From Candidatus Saccharimonadia bacterium (GTDB lineage Bacteria; Patescibacteriota; Saccharimonadia; CAILAD01; CAZGYV01), in the NCBI GenBank assembly GCA_041906885.1, contig JAYRII010000006.1, forward strand, positions 1-63,140: DNA of 63,140 nucleotides. Direction: 5' to 3'. The position numbers and the translations under genes are program-made. Shown piece by piece: positions 13,680-63,140 of the stretch (positions are counted from its first letter, which is position 1; every line of letters begins with the position of its first letter). The notes under the pieces are model-generated. The model saw nothing but the letters and a program-made list of their open reading frames with translations. It had not been told where the DNA came from and did no database searches.

Positions 13680-13747
13680 GTCATTCTGAACTAGTTTCAG
13701 AATCTACTCTTTACGTAAAAAAGACCCTGAAACTAGTTCAGGGTGAC
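13680..13747. repeat. full-length 68-bp double-hairpin palindromic element (GTCAT...GTGAC)
   Basis: GTCATTCTGAACTAGTTTCAGAATCTAC-n15-GACCCTGAAACTAGTTCAGGGTGAC. A half-site lies upstream at 13645-13656. Confidence 0.8.
13717..13747 (-). terminator. rpsT terminator formed by the right arm of the repeat element
   Basis: On the minus strand, CCCTGAACTAGTTTCAGGG is followed by TCTTTTTT. Confidence 0.65.
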
Positions 13748-13773: not shown

Positions 13774-14169
13774 CTATTTACTTTTTGAACTAGGCTTCTT
13801 CGCTGCTGGCTTGGCGGTAGACTTCTTGGCCGAGCTTTTTGGCGCGGCTTTGCTGGATTTAGCAGGCTTTTTACCAGGAGTGCCTGGCTTATCGGTACCA
13901 AATGGCTGCTTGGCGGCGGCATTGTAAGTTTTGGTCAGACGACTCTTTTTGCGCGCAGCGGTGTTCTTGTGTAGAGCGCCTTTCTTGACAGCTCGATCTA
14001 TCTCAGAGATTGCGGCAACGAGGGCAGCCTGAGCCTTGGCCGGATCACTGGCAATGGTGTTGCGAGCTTCCTTAGTCTTAATTCTGACGCCGGTTTTCAC
14101 CATGACATTCCTGGTGCGGCGTTTTTCTTGCTGACGAGCCCTTTTGATGGCGGATTTAATTATTGGCAT
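13774..14169 (-). CDS. rpsT: 30S ribosomal protein S20 with a Lys/Ala-rich C-terminal extension
   Basis: 'MPIIKSAIKRARQQEKRRTRN' S20 N-terminus and a tail 'KKPAKSSKAAPKSSAKKSTAKPAAKKPSSKSK'. Confidence 0.9.
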   Translation of the reverse strand: MPIIKSAIKRARQQEKRRTRNVMVKTGVRIKTKEARNTIASDPAKAQAALVAAISEIDRAVKKGALHKNTAARKKSRLTKTYNAAAKQPFGTDKPGTPGKKPAKSSKAAPKSSAKKSTAKPAAKKPSSKSK

Positions 14170-14290: not shown

Positions 14291-14319
14291 TTGACTAAAT
14301 AGCAGATATTAGATAAAGT
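14291..14319 (+). promoter_or_regulatory. sigma70-like promoter TTGACT-17-TAAAGT
   Basis: TTGACT at 14291-14296, 17-nt spacer, TAAAGT at 14314-14319. No ORF follows it. Confidence 0.5.
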
Positions 14320-14325
14320 AATGCC

Positions 14326-14820
14326 ATTCTCCAGTCTCCTTTAAGTAGACTGGAGACCACCAGACGCTTGTAAGCTCGCTTGCAGTATCTGGGGCGGGAT
14401 CCCGCCAAGGTCTCTCCTTGTGATAATGTGTCACCGGGGTACATCATTGCAAGGAGAATCGACTCTCGAGAGGGTGGATCTGCACTTTAGGTGCAGAGCT
14501 TTCGGGAGTCAAGCAAGAGGGGTGTCGCCACGCCATAGTGGCGACAGGTTGCTGGAGCACGGGCGAGGCTTTAGGCCATAGGTACTGCTCCAGCAACCAC
14601 CCCCCTCGTTATTCTTAAAGATCTCGCTCGTGGTAGTCGGCACTTGCCTGCTAGCTATCTCAGAGCGAGACAGGGAAGGCGGCAATTTAAGAGTAGTGTT
14701 ATGCTAACTCCCAGTCGCATAACACTACTCCACCCCGCCGCCTTCCCTAAGATCTATTATTTAAGGGCTTATGCCCTTAAATATGCCCCCAGGTTTTAAT
14801 ACCTGGGGATTTTCTATTTA
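14326..14820 (+). ncRNA. candidate structured RNA of unknown class, about 490 nt (alternatively a palindromic-repeat graveyard)
   Basis: A 700-bp ORF-free gap bounded by the promoter above and a terminator. It holds at least 8 strong helices, including a three-way junction at 14517-14608 and a 12+14-bp extended hairpin at 14672-14748. Confidence 0.35.
14787..14820 (+). terminator. rho-independent terminator
   Basis: CCCCAGGT-tttaat-ACCTGGGG followed by ATTTTCTATTT. Confidence 0.6.
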
Positions 14821-14857: not shown

Positions 14858-14886
14858 TTGACAAAATGCTTATCTTTTGATAAAAT
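14858..14886 (+). promoter_or_regulatory. consensus promoter TTGACA-17-TAAAAT with an extended -10 TG
   Basis: TTGACA at 14858-14863 and TGaTAAAAT at 14878-14886. This shows the tracked TTG start at 14877 is spurious. Confidence 0.7.
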
Positions 14887-14918: not shown

Positions 14919-15899
14919 ATGGAGCTAACCCCTAAGCAACAAGCATCAGAACTCATTAGACAGGCTAATACAATCCTGCTCGTGACGGCTCGCGAACCTA
15001 ATAACGACCAGCTAGCCAGTCTTGTTGCTATGCAAGCAATTCTAGCCAAGCTGGGTAAGAACGTGCATGCCATCGTAACAGACGACCTGCCTAAAATAAG
15101 TGCTGCACTTGATACTTCTAAAATCAATCGCAACCTAGAAGGAATTCGGGACTTTGTGATTAGCTTGGATATGAGTCGAGTTGAAGTTGATAAGCTCAAA
15201 TACACGATCGAAAATGGCAAATTGAATATTATTGCGACGCCGCATCAGGGTAATTTCACCGCTGCTGACGCCAGCTACAGCTATGGTGCTTATCAGCTTG
15301 ATCTGGTAATTGCGATTGGCGTGCCAAGTTTATCTAAGATCGATCGCCTGCACGAGGCTAATCCGACCATCTTTGACGGCATACACTTAATCAATATGGA
15401 TTATCACCGTATCAATGACAGCTACGGTTCAGTTAATTTGATCGATCAGTCATCCTCGAGCGTAGCCGAGATATTGGTGTCTGTCACTGAGTCACTCGGC
15501 CAAGGCCTAATTGATGCCCATATCGCAACGGCGATGCTAGCTGGTATCATGGCCAGTACCAACCGTTTTAGTGCTCCCAATACTACTCCAAAGGCTATGA
15601 CAGTGGCAGCTCAGCTGATGGCGGCTGGTGCGAAGCAGCAAGAGATCGTTAAGGTGCTGTATGGTAATGAAGCTGGCCAGGCCGCTTCCAAGTCAAAAAA
15701 AAAGCCCGTGAACCAAAACCAATTTCAGCGACAAACTCAGAAAAATCAACTCACTCACTCGGACAAGATAAATCAATCGGACCTTATTCCGGCCGCATCG
15801 ATAGCGCAAGTGGTCAAATCGAGCGAGTTGTCCGCCGCTAGTGCTGGCCAGCAGTCACCAATCGCACCGCAAACTCCACTAGCTAGCGCTCATTCTTAA
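14919..15899 (+). CDS. DHH-family phosphoesterase (NrnA-like) with apparently degenerate motifs and a Gln-rich tail
   Basis: DHH/DHHA1-like layout and the usual position upstream of truB. The expected 'DHH' motif reads 'DYH' and the N-terminal His/Asp motif reads 'REPNNDQLAS'. C-terminal tail is low complexity. Confidence 0.6.
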   Translation: MELTPKQQASELIRQANTILLVTAREPNNDQLASLVAMQAILAKLGKNVHAIVTDDLPKISAALDTSKINRNLEGIRDFVISLDMSRVEVDKLKYTIENGKLNIIATPHQGNFTAADASYSYGAYQLDLVIAIGVPSLSKIDRLHEANPTIFDGIHLINMDYHRINDSYGSVNLIDQSSSSVAEILVSVTESLGQGLIDAHIATAMLAGIMASTNRFSAPNTTPKAMTVAAQLMAAGAKQQEIVKVLYGNEAGQAASKSKKKPVNQNQFQRQTQKNQLTHSDKINQSDLIPAASIAQVVKSSELSAASAGQQSPIAPQTPLASAHS

Positions 15900-20027: not shown

Positions 20028-20079
20028 ATCAATTATCAATCAGTCTCGTCATCGTGAATTTAATAATTAAAACAATTCT

Positions 20080-20149
20080 GTCATCCTGAACTTGATTCAG
20101 GATCTCTCGTGAAAAAGAGATCAGGGATTCTGAAAAATTTCAGAATGAC
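20080..20149. repeat. full-length 70-bp double-hairpin palindromic element
   Basis: GTCATCCTGAACTTGATTCAGGATCTC-(GATCTCT..AGAGATC hairpin)-GGGATTCTGAAAAATTTCAGAATGAC. Confidence 0.8.
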
Positions 20150-36252: not shown

Positions 36253-37443
36253 TTACTTAACATTAAACCTAAAAACAATCACATCACCGTCACGCACGAT
36301 GTAGTCGCGGCCTTCGAGGCGAACTTTGCCGGCCTCTTTGGCGCCAACCCAGCCGTTACTGCTTACAAAATCGTCATACGATACTACTTCAGCTTTAATA
36401 AAGCCCTTCTCAAAATCTCCATGAATGACGCCGGCCGCTTCGGGTGCGGTAGCGCCGATTGGCACGGTCCAGGCGCGAGATTCCTTTTCGCCGCTGGTGA
36501 AATAAGTCTGCAAGCCGAGCGTTTGATAGCCTAGGCGGATCAGGCTCTGCAGGCCCGATTCTTCTTGCCCGAGCTCGGCCAAAAGCTCGCGTCTGTCCGC
36601 CTCGCTCAAATCCATCAGTTGCTCTTCTGTCTTGGCAGATAAAAATATGGTTGGCAATCCTGGTACGAGTTCGGCTAATTGCTTCTTGTAAGCTTCGTCT
36701 GAGAGCTTAGCTTCGGCGATATTGAAAACATAGATAAATGGTTTGGCAGTGAGGAGCTGGAGAACTTTTATACTGTCTGAAATTTCTGGTATGTCATGCC
36801 GAACTTGTTTCGGTATCTCGATTTTTAAGTTTGTAGATCCTGAAACGAGTTCAGGATGACCATTTTTGTTGGGATGACCGTTATTTCTATTGGGCTGGCT
36901 GTAATGTTGGCTGACCAGTTCGCCTCGGTCTAAAAATTCTTTTATTTTTGCTAGCTCGGCAACTGTGGCGCTAGCTTTAGGGTTCGCCTTGCGTTCTTTT
37001 TCAAGCTTGTTTAAGCGATTTTCAACCGTAGCTAGATCTGCTAAACAGAGCTCAGTACGAATCGTCTCGATATCGCGCGCTGGGTCGATCGCATCATCGA
37101 CATGGACGACGTTATCATCCTCAAAGGCCCGTACGACTTGCACGATTGCAGCGCACTCACGGATGTGAGCGAGAAATTTATTGCCCAAGCCAGCTCCCTC
37201 AGACGCACCACGCACAATGCCGGCGATGTCAGTAAAGCTAACCGCTGCTGGGATAACTTTGGCACTTTTTGAAATATCAGCTAGTCTGGCGAGTCGCGCG
37301 TCTGGTACTTCAACCACGCCGACATTTGGCTCGATCGTGGCAAAAGGGTAGTTAGCGGCTAAAACTTTATTGCGGGTGAGGGCATTAAAAAGCGTCGACT
37401 TGCCGACATTAGGCAAGCCAACGATGCCGATAGATAAACTCAT
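36253..37443 (-). CDS. ychF: ribosome-binding ATPase YchF carrying an in-frame repeat-element insertion
   Basis: 'GIVGLPNVGKSTLFNAL' G1 motif and a C-terminal TGS-like 'RAWTVPIGATAPEAAGVIHGDFEKGFIKAEV'. It is 396 aa, against roughly 363 for typical YchF. Confidence 0.93.
   Translation of the reverse strand: MSLSIGIVGLPNVGKSTLFNALTRNKVLAANYPFATIEPNVGVVEVPDARLARLADISKSAKVIPAAVSFTDIAGIVRGASEGAGLGNKFLAHIRECAAIVQVVRAFEDDNVVHVDDAIDPARDIETIRTELCLADLATVENRLNKLEKERKANPKASATVAELAKIKEFLDRGELVSQHYSQPNRNNGHPNKNGHPELVSGSTNLKIEIPKQVRHDIPEISDSIKVLQLLTAKPFIYVFNIAEAKLSDEAYKKQLAELVPGLPTIFLSAKTEEQLMDLSEADRRELLAELGQEESGLQSLIRLGYQTLGLQTYFTSGEKESRAWTVPIGATAPEAAGVIHGDFEKGFIKAEVVSYDDFVSSNGWVGAKEAGKVRLEGRDYIVRDGDVIVFRFNVK
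36793..36860. repeat. full-length 68-bp double-hairpin element inside the ychF coding sequence
   Basis: Plus strand reads GTCATGCCGAACTTGTTTCGGTATC-n18-GATCCTGAAACGAGTTCAGGATGAC. An extra half-site lies at 36872-36880. Confidence 0.8.
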
Positions 37444-51518: not shown

Positions 51519-51654
51519 CTTTTATATACGCTTCTATACTCTCGTATAAATAACAAAACTCAAGGAGGAGGTAAGAAATATCATGCAATTAACTAAGAAA
51601 AAAGGTTTCACCCTGATTGAAATCGTTATCGTGCTGGCGATTGCGGCACTGATA
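51519..51654. repeat. left arm of a perfect 136-bp inverted repeat (pilin 5' UTR plus the first 24 codons)
   Basis: Reverse complement of 52445-52580 with no mismatch by eye. Confidence 0.85.
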
Positions 51655-51984
51655 CTTATCATTGTGTTCTTGGCGGTGTCAGGTGCGCAAAGGGAGAGAA
51701 GAAACGACGGACGTAAAAATATCGCTGGGCAAGTGGTTGCAGCTGTTCAAACATTTCAGGGAAATAATGGTGGCGCTTTACCAACAAATGCCTCACCATC
51801 TACCCAGTTGCAAAGTATTGTTATAAATAGAGATGTACCGGGAGTGGGTACTATGACAATTAACGTGTCCGCCCTACCGTCTTGTACGAATACAGGAAGT
51901 GCCATAGTAACATTTAATGGATCTACTACTGTTCGCGCATGTCTAGAAGGTAACGGAACCACTGGATACGACCTTACATTGTAG
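51583..51984 (+). CDS. type IV pilin (prepilin with a G|FTLIE cleavage/methylation site)
   Basis: 'MQLTKKKGFTLIEIVIVLAIAALIL'. Confidence 0.85.
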   Translation: MQLTKKKGFTLIEIVIVLAIAALILIIVFLAVSGAQRERRNDGRKNIAGQVVAAVQTFQGNNGGALPTNASPSTQLQSIVINRDVPGVGTMTINVSALPSCTNTGSAIVTFNGSTTVRACLEGNGTTGYDLTL

Positions 51985-52051: not shown

Positions 52052-52516
52052 CTACGAAGCGTTATCGATACAAACTACCGTATTACCACTTTCCACCCAG
52101 TAGGTAATAGCTAGAGTGTTTCTACTTGGTGTGTGAGTTACTCCATTAAAGGTTTGTGCTGTGTTAGCTATGCCTCCAGCAGCAGTACATACGTAGGCGT
52201 CTCTATACCTAAATCTTTGGCCGGCGGTAGATGTGGCAGCTGCGTTATTGTAGTTCGGATCTTCACCTTGTCCATTTTGAATGCCTTGGGTGTAGTTACC
52301 TGGTAGATTAGCACCTAAAGGCAAGGTGCCTCCATTATTCGCGAAGTTTTCAAACTGCGCAGAAAGACGAGCTGCGGCATTTTTAGTCACATCGTCACGT
52401 CTAGAACGCTGTGCACCCCCGACAGCTAGGAATACTATCACTAATATCAGTGCCGCAATCGCCAGCACGATAACGATTTCAATCAGGGTGAAACCTTTTT
52501 TCTTAGTTAATTGCAT
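52052..52516 (-). CDS. type IV pilin, second variant, convergent with 51583
   Basis: The first 24 residues are encoded by DNA identical to the 51583 gene. The C-terminal domain is divergent. Confidence 0.85.
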   Translation of the reverse strand: MQLTKKKGFTLIEIVIVLAIAALILVIVFLAVGGAQRSRRDDVTKNAAARLSAQFENFANNGGTLPLGANLPGNYTQGIQNGQGEDPNYNNAAATSTAGQRFRYRDAYVCTAAGGIANTAQTFNGVTHTPSRNTLAITYWVESGNTVVCIDNAS

Positions 52517-52580
52517 GATATTTCTTACCTCCTCCTTGAGTTTTGTTATTTATACGAGAGTATAGAAGCGTATATAAAAG
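52445..52580. repeat. right arm of the perfect 136-bp inverted repeat
   Basis: See the left arm. A strong hairpin, GCGCCGC-n8-GCGGCGC (52584-52605), lies just outside it. Confidence 0.85.
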
Positions 52581-52669: not shown

Positions 52670-53290
52670 ATGATCAAAGCTACAAAACAAACCCGTCATT
52701 CTGGGTCACAAACCTGTCGTCCTGAACAGCGCTCGCTGACTCATCCCCGTCATTCTGGCTTGCGTGGCCGTCATTCTGAATTTATTTCAGAATCTACATT
52801 GAGTGCTAACAAGATCCTGAAACGAGTTCAGGATGACATTAGAAGTCAGGGTGATAACAAAGGCCGGGGTGGCGTTCAAATCCAAGGTAGCACTACCCAA
52901 AGGGGCTTCACGATCGTCGAGACGCTCTTTGTGCTCGCAATCGGCGGACTGATCTTGATAATGACATTCCTAGCGCTCGGCCAGACCAATCGCTCTAAGC
53001 GCGACGCCCAGCGCAAGACGGACTTTGCTAAGATCAATCAGAATATCGCCTCCTGGACAAATGAGCACCATGGTATATTGCCGACTGGTACTGCTGCAGT
53101 ACAGACTGCATCGGCACCAATACCCGATTCGCCAGATGGGAGTGGAAATCCATATGATGTGACCGCTACTTCCATCACTACTGCTTGCGGCGCTGGGTCA
53201 ACGAACAATATCTACTACGAGCGGACAAACGATAGATCATACAAAATAAAAATCTGTTTAGAATCAGGAGAATTCATTGAAAACCACTAA
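52670..53290 (+). CDS. pilin-like protein (G|FTIVE site); true start uncertain
   Basis: 'QRGFTIVETLFVLAIGGLILIMTF'. The only in-frame ATG lies about 75 codons upstream, and the ORF there reads through repeat elements. In-frame TTG codons also exist. Confidence 0.6.
   Translation: MIKATKQTRHSGSQTCRPEQRSLTHPRHSGLRGRHSEFISESTLSANKILKRVQDDIRSQGDNKGRGGVQIQGSTTQRGFTIVETLFVLAIGGLILIMTFLALGQTNRSKRDAQRKTDFAKINQNIASWTNEHHGILPTGTAAVQTASAPIPDSPDGSGNPYDVTATSITTACGAGSTNNIYYERTNDRSYKIKICLESGEFIENH
52693..52837. repeat. cluster of three half-sites plus one full 68-bp element (52770-52837)
   Basis: GTCATTCTGAATTTATTTCAGAATCTAC-ATTGAGTGCTAACAA-GATCCTGAAACGAGTTCAGGATGAC. Confidence 0.8.
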
Positions 53291-53975: not shown

Positions 53976-54160
53976 GTCATCCTGAACTTGATTCAGAATC
54001 TACGTTGAGTGCCAACAGATCCTTCGACTTCGCTCAGGATGACAATTGTCCTGACCCGCTGACCACTTCTGTCATTCTGATCCGGCGGTTGCCGGAGAAG
54101 AATCTACTCCCGCTACGAAGCAGATCCTGAATAGTGAGCCAGCGAGCACTGCTTAAGGAC
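53976..54160. repeat. one full 68-bp element (53976-54043) plus a second variant element
   Basis: GTCATCCTGAACTTGATTCAGAATCTAC-GTTGAGTGCCAACA-GATCCTTCGACTTCGCTCAGGATGAC, followed by GTCATTCTGATCCGGCGGTTGCCGGAGAAGAATCTAC... Confidence 0.75.
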
Positions 54161-54196: not shown

Positions 54197-54239
54197 TGAA
54201 TTACTGCAACGGTTATAATGGATGAAAGGGAAGAAGCTT

Positions 54240-54899
54240 ATGGCTCTAACAAAAGAAGACATTTCACAGATCAAAAACCTGATCGACACCATGGATATAT
54301 CACGTATACGCATGGCTATGCGCACAGATATCGAGGAGGTGATGGAGGAGAAGGTTGGTAAATTTGAGATCAAGATTGATCAAAAATTCGCTGATGCTGA
54401 AGTCAAGATCGACCAAAAGTTAGCCGATTTCGAGACGAAGATGTACGAAAAGTTCGCTATCGCTGAGGCTAGTGTAGATGAAAAGTTCGCTATCGCTGAG
54501 GCTAGTGTAGATGAAAAGTTCGCTATCGCTGAGGCTAGTGTAGATGAAAAGTTTGATAATTTCGCTGCCATGGTGCAGAGGCAGTTTGTGCACATCGATA
54601 CTAGGTTTGATAAGCTTGAAGCTAGGTTTGATAAGCTTGAGGCCAGAATGGACAGGCTTGAGGATAGGATGGATAAAATTGAGATCAAGGTTGGTCATCT
54701 AGAAGGGAGAATAGCAAGCATGGAATCAAAGATTTTGGCCATAGAAGCTGAGCTTGAGGAGATTAAAGAAGAGCTCAAGCAGATTAGTACTAGGTCTAAA
54801 GAAGACGCCGATTATCAAGGCTATGAAATCATCAAGCTGGGCCGCCGGGTGACGCAGCTAGAAGATGAGGTGGGTGAGCTTAAGAAAGCTATTAAGTAA
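54240..54899 (+). CDS. coiled-coil repeat protein of unknown function
   Basis: Heptad-like 'D.KF...' repeats, 3x 'EKFAIAEASVD', and 'TRFDKLEARFDKLEARMDRLEDRMDKIE'. Start taken at M7 of the tracked ORF. Confidence 0.6.
   Translation: MALTKEDISQIKNLIDTMDISRIRMAMRTDIEEVMEEKVGKFEIKIDQKFADAEVKIDQKLADFETKMYEKFAIAEASVDEKFAIAEASVDEKFAIAEASVDEKFDNFAAMVQRQFVHIDTRFDKLEARFDKLEARMDRLEDRMDKIEIKVGHLEGRIASMESKILAIEAELEEIKEELKQISTRSKEDADYQGYEIIKLGRRVTQLEDEVGELKKAIK
54447..54545 (+). repeat. perfect 33-bp x3 in-frame tandem repeat, plus a partial fourth unit
   Basis: GAAAAGTTCGCTATCGCTGAGGCTAGTGTAGAT repeated three times. Confidence 0.9.
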
Positions 54900-54923: not shown

Positions 54924-55231
54924 GATTCTTCTCCGGCAGCTGGCGGAGAAGAATGACAGAGGTGGGCAGCAGTTCAGATTGACAGCGCGGAGCTGGCCTG
55001 CTTGTTACCTTGGGTGTAAAAGCTGTCATCTTGAGCGTAGTCGAAAGATCTCTCGCCACGGTCATCCTGAACAGCGAGCTTGTGAGCGCGTTTCAGGATC
55101 TCGCCGGCACGGTTGTCATCCTAAAGCGTAGTCGAAAGATCTGCTGGCACAAGATATAGATCCTGAATCAAGTTCAGGATGACAGGAGCAGAGTTAGATG
55201 CGGAATGACAGAGTAAGTGGTTCAGGACGAC
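54924..55231. repeat. dense cluster of at least 7 hairpin arms of the GTCATYCT.../...RGATGAC family
   Basis: Examples are GTCATCTTGAGCGTAGTCGAAAGATCTC (55025), GTCATCCTGAACAGCGAGCTTGTGAGCGCGTTTCAGGATCTC (55061), GTCATCCTAAAGCGTAGTCGAAAGATCTGC (55115) and GATCCTGAATCAAGTTCAGGATGAC (55159). Confidence 0.8.
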
Positions 55232-60492: not shown

Positions 60493-60610
60493 GATTCTTC
60501 ACTCCGTTTGAGAATGACAACATACCAACCGTCATCCTCAAGCAACAGTCGAAGGATCTATTCCCCCCAAACACCCATCATGTCATCCTGAACTCGTTTC
60601 AGGATCTGTC
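60493..60610. repeat. three hairpin arms of the same repeat family
   Basis: GATTCTTCACTCCGTTTGAGAATGAC, GTCATCCTCAAGCAACAGTCGAAGGATCT and GTCATCCTGAACTCGTTTCAGGATCT. Confidence 0.75.
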
Positions 60611-60643
60611 TATAATTAGAAAATAATTTTTTTATCTTTCTCT

Positions 60644-60790
60644 TTTACTACCTTTTAGCGTAAAAGGTAGTACCAAAAGCATGAGCCTCTAGTTCGCAAA
60701 CAAGTGGTTGCTAAATAAGTCATTCTAATTACTAAGCGAGAACTCACTCGCCTTTGGCTCGCTCAAACAGCTCGCTTAGGTTCTGGCTTT
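60644..60790 (+). repeat. copy 1 of a direct repeat of about 145 bp flanking mnmG
   Basis: TTTACTACCTTTTAGCGTAAAAGGTAGTACCAAAAGCATGAGCC...GCGAGAACTCACTCGCC...CTCAAACAGCTCGC. Highly similar to 62999-63140. Confidence 0.75.
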
Positions 60791-62927: not shown

Positions 62928-62998
62928 ATAGGACTTCTACTTTACTTAAAAGTAAGCAAAAACTCCCCCTACTTTTGGGTTACGGCCAAAAATCCTTC

Positions 62999-63140
62999 TT
63001 TCACTACCTTTTAACGTAAAAGGTAGTACCAAAAGCATGAGCCTTTATGTCGCAAGCAAGTGGGTCTTATGAACTGTTATATCACTACCAGGCGAGAACT
63101 CACTCGCCTAAAAGCTCACTCAAACAGCTCGCCTGGTTTA
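62999..63140 (+). repeat. copy 2 of the direct repeat of about 145 bp (runs to the window edge)
   Basis: TTCACTACCTTTTAACGTAAAAGGTAGTACCAAAAGCATGAGCC...GCGAGAACTCACTCGCC...CTCAAACAGCTCGCC. Confidence 0.75.

Follow-up and report, generated by a model that had tools for sequence, protein, structure and literature searches.

This study concerns a stretch of 63,140 nt from a Candidatus Saccharimonadia bacterium (contig JAYRII010000006.1), referred to here as the window, and in particular the gap between its rpsT gene and a gene encoding a DHH-family phosphoesterase (nrnA-like). Within this gap, positions 14291-14819 of the + strand very probably constitute a stand-alone gene for a functional, structured non-coding RNA that belongs to a previously undescribed family. 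In this candidate unit, a promoter of the sigma-70 type and an intrinsic terminator enclose some 490 nt in which no open reading frame (ORF) is conserved. A sequence-only reading of the window had proposed an independent unit for a large structured RNA of unknown class at this place, and the proposal was supported by conservation, covariation, retrieval of homologues with a structural model and the lack of a match in Rfam.

The interpretation as an RNA rests on three observations: the promoter and the terminator were found in ten out of ten family members, the + strand was the more stable one in all nine members that were folded, and the helices covary, with G-U pairs included. The shape of the molecule is under selection, as paired positions covary while the primary sequence drifts, and this signal is + strand-specific. 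The range of the family is limited to a single sub-clade of the Saccharimonadia, members of the candidate phyla radiation (CPR, Patescibacteria), and its location is always between rpsT and the DHH gene.

Conservation and covariation of the element

Using the DHH protein, 137 loci were retrieved from GTDB species representatives and JGI metagenomes, and they mark the organism as one of the Saccharimonadia. The distance between rpsT and the DHH gene in these loci is typically about 120-170 nt, and only the two closest relatives among them, L001 and L002 (DHH protein identity of 77% and 73%, respectively), contained a gap of 750-840 nt. Both ends of this gap are conserved, while its interior could not be aligned by blastn. 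Further members were obtained by DHH protein look-ups in a large assembly collection, namely L166 (82%), L167 and L169 (80%), L170 and L171 (75%) and L172 (71%). The deeper-branching members are L175 (63%) and L184 (64%), and L174 (69%) carries a short form of 253 nt. An identical element was present in several assemblies of the window's own species, and a DHH protein identical to that of the window was found in the Logan assemblies of SRR31861103, SRR31861110, SRR11914004, SRR27448552 and SRR11913999. Conservation outside the window's genome, which the sequence-only reading had suggested as a check, was therefore found in the syntenic gap of nine further Saccharimonadia lineages, giving ten distinct members in all. 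A metagenome scan with the DHH protein returned nothing above 63% identity, and none of those loci contained the element.

All ten members share a −35 box TTGAC(T/A), a spacer of 17-18 nt, a −10 box TAnnnT and a terminal GC-rich hairpin followed by a U-run. These signals are kept although the sequence between them cannot be aligned by blastn. The RNAs are 450-640 nt long (253 nt in L174), with a GC content of 0.48-0.59 versus 0.456 for the whole window. Nine members displayed fold z-scores between −8 and −15. When homologues were folded independently, the same series of domains was obtained: H1, a CCACC junction, a variable H2, H3 with a GGCGG/CCGCC base, AAGGUUUC leading to H4, H5 with a GGUGG(G/A)U internal loop, the three-way junction H6, an AAAG(A/U)U junction, H7, a long H8 and the terminator. 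The order of the helices is identical in nine of the ten members, the exception being L174.

In order to evaluate covariation, two kinds of alignment were used, a sequence-only one of close members (A4) and model-based ones, because MAFFT alignments of all members (A1, A2, A3 and A6) were mostly misaligned. RNAalifold found almost no consensus structure in the latter. Alignment A4 contains the window copy, L167 and L166 at 70% mean column identity and was scored against the window's own fold. In total, 79.3% of the cells were in standard pairs, versus 40-47% when the 3' partners were slid by 1-3 columns, and 31 pairs were altered on both sides, versus 4-16 after sliding. Not one of 500 shuffles attained the observed value.

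From the same three sequences, a covariance model of H3-H5 (R1) was derived. It detected two members from outside its seed, L170 (45.7 bits, E = 3e-9) and L001 (26.4 bits, E = 1e-4), which blastn cannot align. In the model-derived alignment A7 (five distinct sequences, 43 pairs), 87.3% of the cells were paired versus 37-54% in slid controls, and 22 of the 43 pairs were altered on both sides versus 4-8, with 0 of 500 shuffles reaching the observed value; these counts are inflated because the alignment was fitted to the structure model, which is not the case for A4. Compensatory changes thus maintain the pairs well above both shuffled and slid controls, which answers the check for covariation suggested by the sequence-only reading. 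The rebuilt model R2 gave its best match in L002 and L172 at the expected position (E ~0.2-0.3) and performed weakly on L175 and L184.

The + strand fold was 13-53 kcal/mol more stable than its reverse complement in nine of nine folded members, and G-U pairs were more numerous on the + strand in eight of them. This bias fits an RNA read from the + strand and not a cluster of palindromes at the DNA level. No ORF was found to be conserved among nine members; the only cross-matches came from one nucleotide-similar pair and occurred on both strands. In L170, a gene of 178 aa had been called across the element; this call was rejected as spurious, as it showed no Pfam match and was not conserved in the other members.

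Several observations weigh against the interpretation as a functional RNA gene or against the loop-display mechanism proposed below. Besides the inflated counts of A7, the range is narrow (about ten lineages), and the same gap lacks the element in most Saccharimonadia, where it measures about 140 nt or contains other inserts; this implies that the element is dispensable. The distant members L002, L172, L175 and L184 were detected by model with E values of only ~0.01-1.3, and their link to the family rests mainly on synteny, on the architecture, on the loop motif described below and on shared junctions in which AAG follows GGCGG..CCGCC. The window copy carries a single loop motif, its H3 being devoid of it. 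Sites complementary to the motif (GACUGGGAGG) were found twice in the 63-kb window, versus 2.3 expected by chance; since only 63 kb of the genome is covered, this number argues neither way. Transcription, the transcript ends and the stability of the RNA are predictions. Finally, the − strand of the window copy also folds well (z = −13.2), and most functional RNAs have less perfect stems, leaving some room for a DNA-level or recent-origin component.

The last two points would also be expected if the gap were an insertion hot spot filled with piled-up palindromic or REP-like DNA repeats, or with the debris of hairpins, and had no RNA function. Such an origin was raised as the alternative in the sequence-only reading, and it could draw further on a dispersed palindromic family, GTCATCCTGAAC..TTCAGGATCT, that is present in the window, and on the other cargo of the gap in relatives (an insertion sequence, IS, element in L060; small ORFs in L004, L058, L006 and L012). 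However, every part of the interior is unique within the window, where blastn returned only the element's own inverted repeats, and R2 detected the element once there and not at all in ~0.9 Mb of other CPR loci. The dispersed family is absent from the element. The similarity to a string at 55045, which had been noted as a possible sign of a repeat family, turned out to be a match of 9-11 nt only (AAAGATCTC is present five times in the window). Moreover, helix order, junctions, promoter and terminator are conserved while the helix sequences differ by compensatory changes, and the consistent stability of the + strand is unlike that of DNA cruciforms. This origin is therefore considered highly improbable.

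Searches outside the retrieved loci were also negative. Assembled genome contigs searched with CCACCNCC..AAGATCTCNCTNGTG yielded the contig of L001 and chance matches in GC-rich genomes only, and no match was found when genome contigs were searched with the D-arm and acceptor string of the tRNA-like module of L175 and L184. Viral contigs searched with CCTCCCAGTC..CGCCAAGGT gave 8 matches, approximately the estimated chance number, and none was confirmed by covariance model. A blastn search of the element against 50,697 phage records returned no match.

The element was compared with known RNA families by cmscan against Rfam 15 (4227 models), at gathering thresholds and then at E ≤ 10. No family reached its gathering threshold in the whole 63-kb window. 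At E ≤ 10, only hairpin- or terminator-like matches of 8-24 bits were obtained over the region (gathering thresholds 37-84), and the same was true of L001 and L002. This is in line with the claim of an unknown class, given that a known Rfam family would argue against novelty. The models of GOLLD, ROOL, OLE, HEARO and raiA gave no match at either level. Among T-box and riboswitch models nothing rose above noise (nhaA-I, 21 bits versus a gathering threshold of 37), and between the element and the DHH gene stands a promoter close to the consensus. The Rfam Y RNA gave no match in the window, whose copy lacks a tRNA-like module, and neither did the RNAIII model; an embedded peptide ORF of the hld type was likewise not seen, as no ORF is conserved among the nine members. 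No YrlA or mascRNA family reached the gathering threshold, and at E ≤ 10 L002 scored 13.9 bits with mascRNA-menRNA (gathering threshold 42.5). The 63-kb window contains no tRNA genes according to ARAGORN and to RF00005 at E ≤ 10.

The sequence-only reading had found no signatures of RNase P RNA, tmRNA or signal recognition particle (SRP) RNA, and this was borne out by the covariance models and by ARAGORN. The bacterial RNase P models of types A and B gave no match, the only related signal being an 8.2-bit fragment match to RNaseP_arch (gathering threshold 84). ARAGORN, applied to the window and to 14 related loci, detected no tmRNA, and Rfam gave no tmRNA match either. On the basis of these results, RNase P RNA, tmRNA, SRP RNA, 6S RNA, T-box, Y RNA and the ornate RNAs were rejected as identities of the element. 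A housekeeping RNA (RNase P RNA, tmRNA, SRP RNA or 6S RNA) so divergent that current models miss it would agree with the size of the element, which is within the range of RNase P RNA and tmRNA, with the unusual RNAs of CPR organisms and with the tRNA-like module of relatives, which recalls the tRNA-like domain of tmRNA. Yet the archaeal RNase P fragment is the only related match at E ≤ 10, and in the modules of relatives both acceptor strands lie close together, with no G3-U70 pair and no tag reading frame. The universality expected of an RNase P-like RNA is also not seen at this locus, as the element is missing from the syntenic gap of most Saccharimonadia, its interiors cannot be aligned by blastn and its sequence conservation is far below that of universal RNAs. 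A divergent housekeeping RNA is thus scarcely credible. In the searched literature, the coverage of which is incomplete so that a prior description is not excluded, no comparable RNA of Saccharibacteria or Patescibacteria was found.

Fold and transcription signals in the window

The element is located in a chromosomal housekeeping cluster composed of fpg, holA, rpsT, the DHH gene, truB, rpsO and pnp. It is flanked by rpsT (13774-14169, − strand) on one side and by the DHH gene, followed by truB and rpsO, on the other. The downstream genes (DHH-truB-rpsO-pnp) are on the same strand as the element and all concern RNA metabolism. The length of the gap had been given as 707 bp, assuming a TTG start at 14877; it has to be corrected to 749 bp, because the DHH protein starts at the ATG at 14919 (MELTPKQQ) in homologues and in public gene calls.

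The remaining features that had been claimed for the gap were confirmed. Consensus scans located both the promoter of the RNA (TTGACT-17-TAAAGT) and a separate promoter of the downstream gene at 14858, the latter with 11 of 12 consensus positions, and the terminator scan detected the stem and T-run expected in the region 14787-14820 (Table 1). The GC content is 0.50-0.565 within the element and 0.335-0.38 in the flanks. The ORFs that overlap it on either strand are short, mostly non-ATG and without good starts, and none is conserved in relatives. The transcription start site is predicted to lie at approximately 14323-14327.

The minimum free energy (MFE) fold of 14320-14820 has −258.7 kcal/mol, versus −164 ± 6 for dinucleotide-preserving shuffles (z = −14.9), and it reproduces all the helices that had been listed by eye. 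The coordinates are collected in Table 1.

Table 1 Features of the element, its boundaries and the dispersed repeats in the window
Feature	Position	Sequence or structure	Basis and remarks
Promoter	14291..14319 (+)	−35 TTGACT 14291-14296, 17-nt spacer, −10 TAAAGT 14314-14319	Consensus scan
Predicted 5' end region	14320..14327 (+)	AAUGCCAU; family consensus ACGCCAUU	Similar after the −10 box in window, L167, L166, L170
H1 hairpin	14328..14356 (+)	UCUCCAGUCU / AGACUGGAGA	MFE fold
Junction CCACC	14357..14361 (+)		Candidate pseudoknot partner of GGUGG 14473-14477
H2 hairpin	14360..14392 (+)	Length varies among members	MFE fold; aligns poorly, 67% of cells paired in A4
H3, GGCGG/CCGCC stem	14393..14406 (+)	Minimal hairpin with GAUC loop in the window	
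H4 hairpin	14409..14460 (+)	Includes conserved AAGGUYUC base, GGU pairing with AUC	MFE fold: 14413-14457
H5 hairpin	14461..14510 (+)	Conserved internal loop GGUGGA 14473-14478; apical hairpin 14479-14497	MFE fold (tip)
H6 three-way junction	14517..14607 (+)	Closing stem GAGGGG/CCCCUC; arm a 14523-14546; arm b 14547-14598	MFE fold
Single-stranded junction	14608..14621 (+)	Ends AAAGA(UCU)	AAAG(A/U)U kept in window, L167, L166, L001
H7 hairpin	14622..14670 (+)	Degenerate form of the cloverleaf in the window	MFE fold; tRNA-like cloverleaf at equivalent position in L002, L172, L175, L184
H8 long hairpin	14672..14748 (+)	12 bp + 14 bp; apical loop holds family motif ACUCCCAGUC 14707-14716	MFE fold
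H9 AU-rich hairpin	14758..14783 (+)	Precedes the terminator	MFE fold; not kept in all members; weak alignment
Intrinsic terminator	14787..14819 (+)	8-bp GC-rich stem CCCCAGGT/ACCTGGGG 14787-14808, then U-rich tail	Terminator scan
Promoter of DHH-truB-rpsO genes	14858..14886 (+)	TTGACA-17-TAAAAT with TG extension, 11/12 positions	Outside the RNA, marks its 3' boundary
GTCATCCTGAAC..TTCAGGATCT repeats	13680-13747, 20078-20105, 36793-36860, 52770-52837, 53976-54043, 55158-55187, 60570-60607		

Most helices are backed by the alignments. A hairpin of differing sequence stands at the place of H1 in 7 members, and in A4 85% of its cells were paired, with 2 double-sided changes. The pairs of the H3 base are kept in the core five members, L175 and L184 (A7: 100% of cells paired, 3 of 5 pairs double-changed); in relatives H3 is a long hairpin with CCUCCCAGUC in its loop. 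For H4 (helices 2 and 3 of A7), 92% and 82% of the cells were paired, with 3 and 6 pairs altered on both sides, respectively, and for H5 (helices 4-6) the values were 80-84% and 6, 3 and 1 pairs. The H6 junction was predicted independently in 7 members, and its helices 9-12 in A4 had 86-93% of cells paired and 6 double-sided changes. In H8, helix 16 of A4 was paired in 96% of cells and helix 17 in 72%, the latter with 4 pairs altered on both sides.

Two longer-range contacts were considered. All core members keep CCACC, CCACU or CCGCC after H1 and GGUGG in the H5 internal loop; a pseudoknot between the two is possible as a candidate pairing, its variation being wobble-compatible only. A helix between AGGUC 14408-14412 and GAUCU 14751-14755 was predicted by the fold and is probably not real, because its GGU has a local partner, AUC, with which it forms a conserved continuation of H4.

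The position of the element upstream of the DHH-truB-rpsO-pnp genes and on their strand would also suit a leader or attenuator that regulates read-through into them in cis. The terminator could be conditional, and the genes served would be ones of RNA metabolism. On the other hand, the promoter with TG extension lies between the terminator and the DHH gene, and a comparable TTGACA promoter precedes this gene in relatives without the element too. The promoter block is 84-92% identical between the window and the nearer element-bearing relatives. No alternative anti-terminator pairing was evident, about 490 nt is very long for a leader, and no riboswitch or T-box model matched. As the DHH gene has its own promoter, also in relatives without the element, a role as cis leader is considered very unlikely, and a separate RNA gene is preferred.

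The rpsT-DHH gap was observed to be an insertion hot spot across Saccharimonadia (L060:1930-2910, L004:3524-4000, L058:1068-1587, L173:2261-2929 and L183:1527-2117). Its cargo includes an IS element with an rve-type transposase (L060), a conserved small ORF on the − strand (L004, L058 and L059), unannotated ORFs of 196-222 aa (L173 and L183) and other ORFs in L006, L011 and L012.

Other repeats were noted in the window. The dispersed palindromic family mentioned above has units of ~26-28 nt, often arranged in inverted pairs. One such pair (13680-13747), which resembles a bidirectional terminator, separates holA from the convergent rpsT gene. A 207-nt inverted repeat (86% complementary, 51519-51725 / 52374-52580) corresponds to the 5' ends of two opposed pilin-like genes, 51583-51984 (+) and 52052-52516 (−), which have near-identical N-termini (MQLTKKKGFTLIEIVIVLAIAALIL) and adjoin pilC-like and further pilin-like genes. 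This repeat could be a substrate for pilin variation or inversion. Six tandem 33-nt repeats at 54348-54558 encode the 11-residue unit DEKFAIAEASV within a coiled-coil-like ORF of 225 aa (54222-54899). Lastly, a 67-nt direct repeat is present in two copies, 60641-60707 and 62997-63063, which are 91% identical and 2.36 kb apart, each with the palindrome CTACCTTTTAGCGTAAAAGGTAG.

Loop motif, tRNA-like module and possible mode of action

The RNAs share a loop motif, YCCCAGYC (most often CCUCCCAGUC), with 1-4 copies in each and nearly always on the + strand only, compared with a background of 0.095 per kb per strand in the window. The motif is mostly situated in large apical loops, that of H3 in most members and that of H8 in the window, and it holds the anti-Shine-Dalgarno core CCUCC. 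In L175, the motif sequence forms the 7-nt 'anticodon' loop and the 3' stem of a tRNA-like module.

Such modules were found in the deeper-branching L175 and L184, and cloverleaves with a canonical T-loop also occupy the position of H7 in L002 and L172 (T-loops UUCGAUU or UUCGACU in all four). The modules of L184 and L175 scored 40.1 and 37.2 bits, respectively, with RF00005 (gathering threshold 29). Their acceptor, D and T arms are intact, and 28-32 nt replace the anticodon arm. The modules of relatives are internal to the RNA, and their acceptor stems (ACUUCUG/CAGAAGU) lack a G3-U70 pair. ARAGORN rejected all of them. In the window, L167, L166, L170 and L001, a plain or irregular hairpin takes the place of the cloverleaf. 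The module of L175 (2741-2824) was missed by the default gathering scan and recovered by the E-value scan, a difference caused by speed filters. In other parts of the window, the gathering scan could likewise have overlooked RNAs that are weak or atypical.

Directly upstream of the RNA promoter, L175 (2181-2444, +) and L184 (1490-1759, +) contain an ORF of 87-89 aa, with 46% identity between the copies. It belongs to no Pfam or PADLOC family, and NCBIfam gave only 14.9 bits to a FliA/WhiG sigma-factor model (cut-off 339), which was taken as noise. No relatives of this ORF were found in GTDB species representatives or IMG/VR, and it is absent from the window and from crown-group loci. The encoded protein could be a partner of the RNA in these two lineages.

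Based on the loop motif, a mode of action by loop display can be proposed. The unit would be transcribed as a stable RNA of ~490 nt acting in trans, with the helices serving as a scaffold. The working parts would be the single-stranded apical loops with the conserved C-rich motif (C)CUCCCAGUC, which can be likened to both an anti-Shine-Dalgarno sequence and an anticodon loop. These loops might bind G-rich RNA of the GGGAGG type or a protein that recognizes such loops. As for its origin, the ancestor may have been a composite transcript with a 5' structured domain, a tRNA-like module and motif-bearing hairpins, the module being retained in deeper-branching members and decayed to the plain hairpin H7 in the crown group, including the window. 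Decay of such a composite transcript would be the simplest history of the family. The mechanism by itself is put forward tentatively; the RNA gene and the mechanism taken together are regarded as reasonably probable.

A composite ancestor would also allow the RNA to be a precursor, with RNase P and RNase Z cutting at the tRNA-like module to release shorter active RNAs: the 5' domain, the tRNA-like RNA and the motif-bearing hairpins. The modules of L175 and L184 score above the gathering threshold for tRNA and have intact acceptor, D and T arms. They are flanked by the structured domain on their 5' side and by the motif-bearing hairpins on their 3' side. Nevertheless, the loss of the cloverleaf in the window and four other members means that processing could at best apply to the deeper-branching ones, and no module was accepted by ARAGORN. 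This possibility is judged unlikely.

A more specific version of loop display is somewhat speculative and rather doubtful. The family would be a CPR-specific ornate RNA derived from a tRNA-containing transcript and would now act as a multivalent mimic of an anticodon loop or an anti-Shine-Dalgarno sequence. Its CCUCCCAGUC loops might then serve as decoys or docking sites that sequester a component of translation or RNA decay, the conceivable partners being an enzyme or toxin that binds anticodon loops, ribosomes, or a KH or S1 RNA-binding protein. If true, this would represent a regulatory principle so far undescribed in the ultra-small, host-dependent Patescibacteria.

In Saccharibacteria and other CPR bacteria, genomes measure about 1 Mb and non-coding DNA is very scarce. 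That 0.5-0.6 kb is kept for a non-coding RNA, and that its fold is maintained through extensive compensatory change, implies a real function. No structured RNA specific to Saccharibacteria or CPR, beyond the universal ones, was found in the searched literature, which was covered incompletely. The family spans the range from a composite transcript with a tRNA-like module to a pure multi-helix RNA and therefore bears on the origin of large structured RNAs. For experimental work, the 10-nt loop motif provides a concrete handle, and the near-perfect helices and moderate size make the RNA practical for structure determination.

Comparison with known RNAs

GOLLD and ROOL are RNAs of several hundred nt that are often found near tRNA islands, and GOLLD sometimes carries tRNAs in its linker (PMC12286853). 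The large 'ornate' bacterial RNAs GOLLD, ROOL and OLE are the closest in kind to the element, which resembles them in being a stand-alone RNA of several hundred nt with many helices, a conserved core, variable regions and covariation support. The tRNA-like module embedded in some of its members parallels the linker tRNAs of GOLLD. It differs from them in failing their covariance models, in its setting in a housekeeping cluster and not in a phage or prophage, in its CPR host, in a much narrower phylogenetic range and in near-perfect helices.

Self-assembly of the kind seen in these ornate RNAs, with a function residing in a multimeric architecture and possibly associated with tRNA, would fit the large size, the many helices and the division into conserved core and variable parts. 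The palindromic, predicted single-stranded AGAUCU at 14619-14624 and 14750-14755 could mediate intermolecular contacts. These palindromes are, however, not conserved across members, and the Rfam models and the genomic setting speak against membership of those families as said. A self-assembling RNA is accordingly an improbable alternative to loop display by a scaffold.

The cloverleaf of L175, L184, L002 and L172, with its canonical T-loop and D-arm and its aberrant anticodon arm, recalls YrlA, the tRNA-like domain of tmRNA and mascRNA. Compared with Y RNAs, the element is 3-5 times longer, the window copy is devoid of the module, and an rsr neighbour was not seen in the retrieved loci. In comparison with tmRNA, the acceptor stem of the relatives lacks the alanine identity pair, and there is no tag frame.

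The RNAIII of Staphylococcus aureus is a multi-hairpin regulator whose C-rich loops pair with G-rich ribosome-binding sites. The element is similar to it and to RsaE/RoxS in that it is about 0.5 kb long, forms many hairpins, has its own promoter and terminator and carries a conserved C-rich apical loop containing UCCC, which could pair with such sites. The differences from RNAIII are the lack of a peptide ORF, of a match to the Rfam model and of target sites above chance level in the window, the single motif loop and the unrelated organisms.

The dense intergenic run of near-perfect hairpins is also reminiscent of repetitive extragenic palindromic sequences (REP) and bacterial interspersed mosaic elements (BIME). 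In contrast to these, the element is single-copy, its helix order is conserved across species with compensatory substitutions, and it is provided with its own promoter and terminator.

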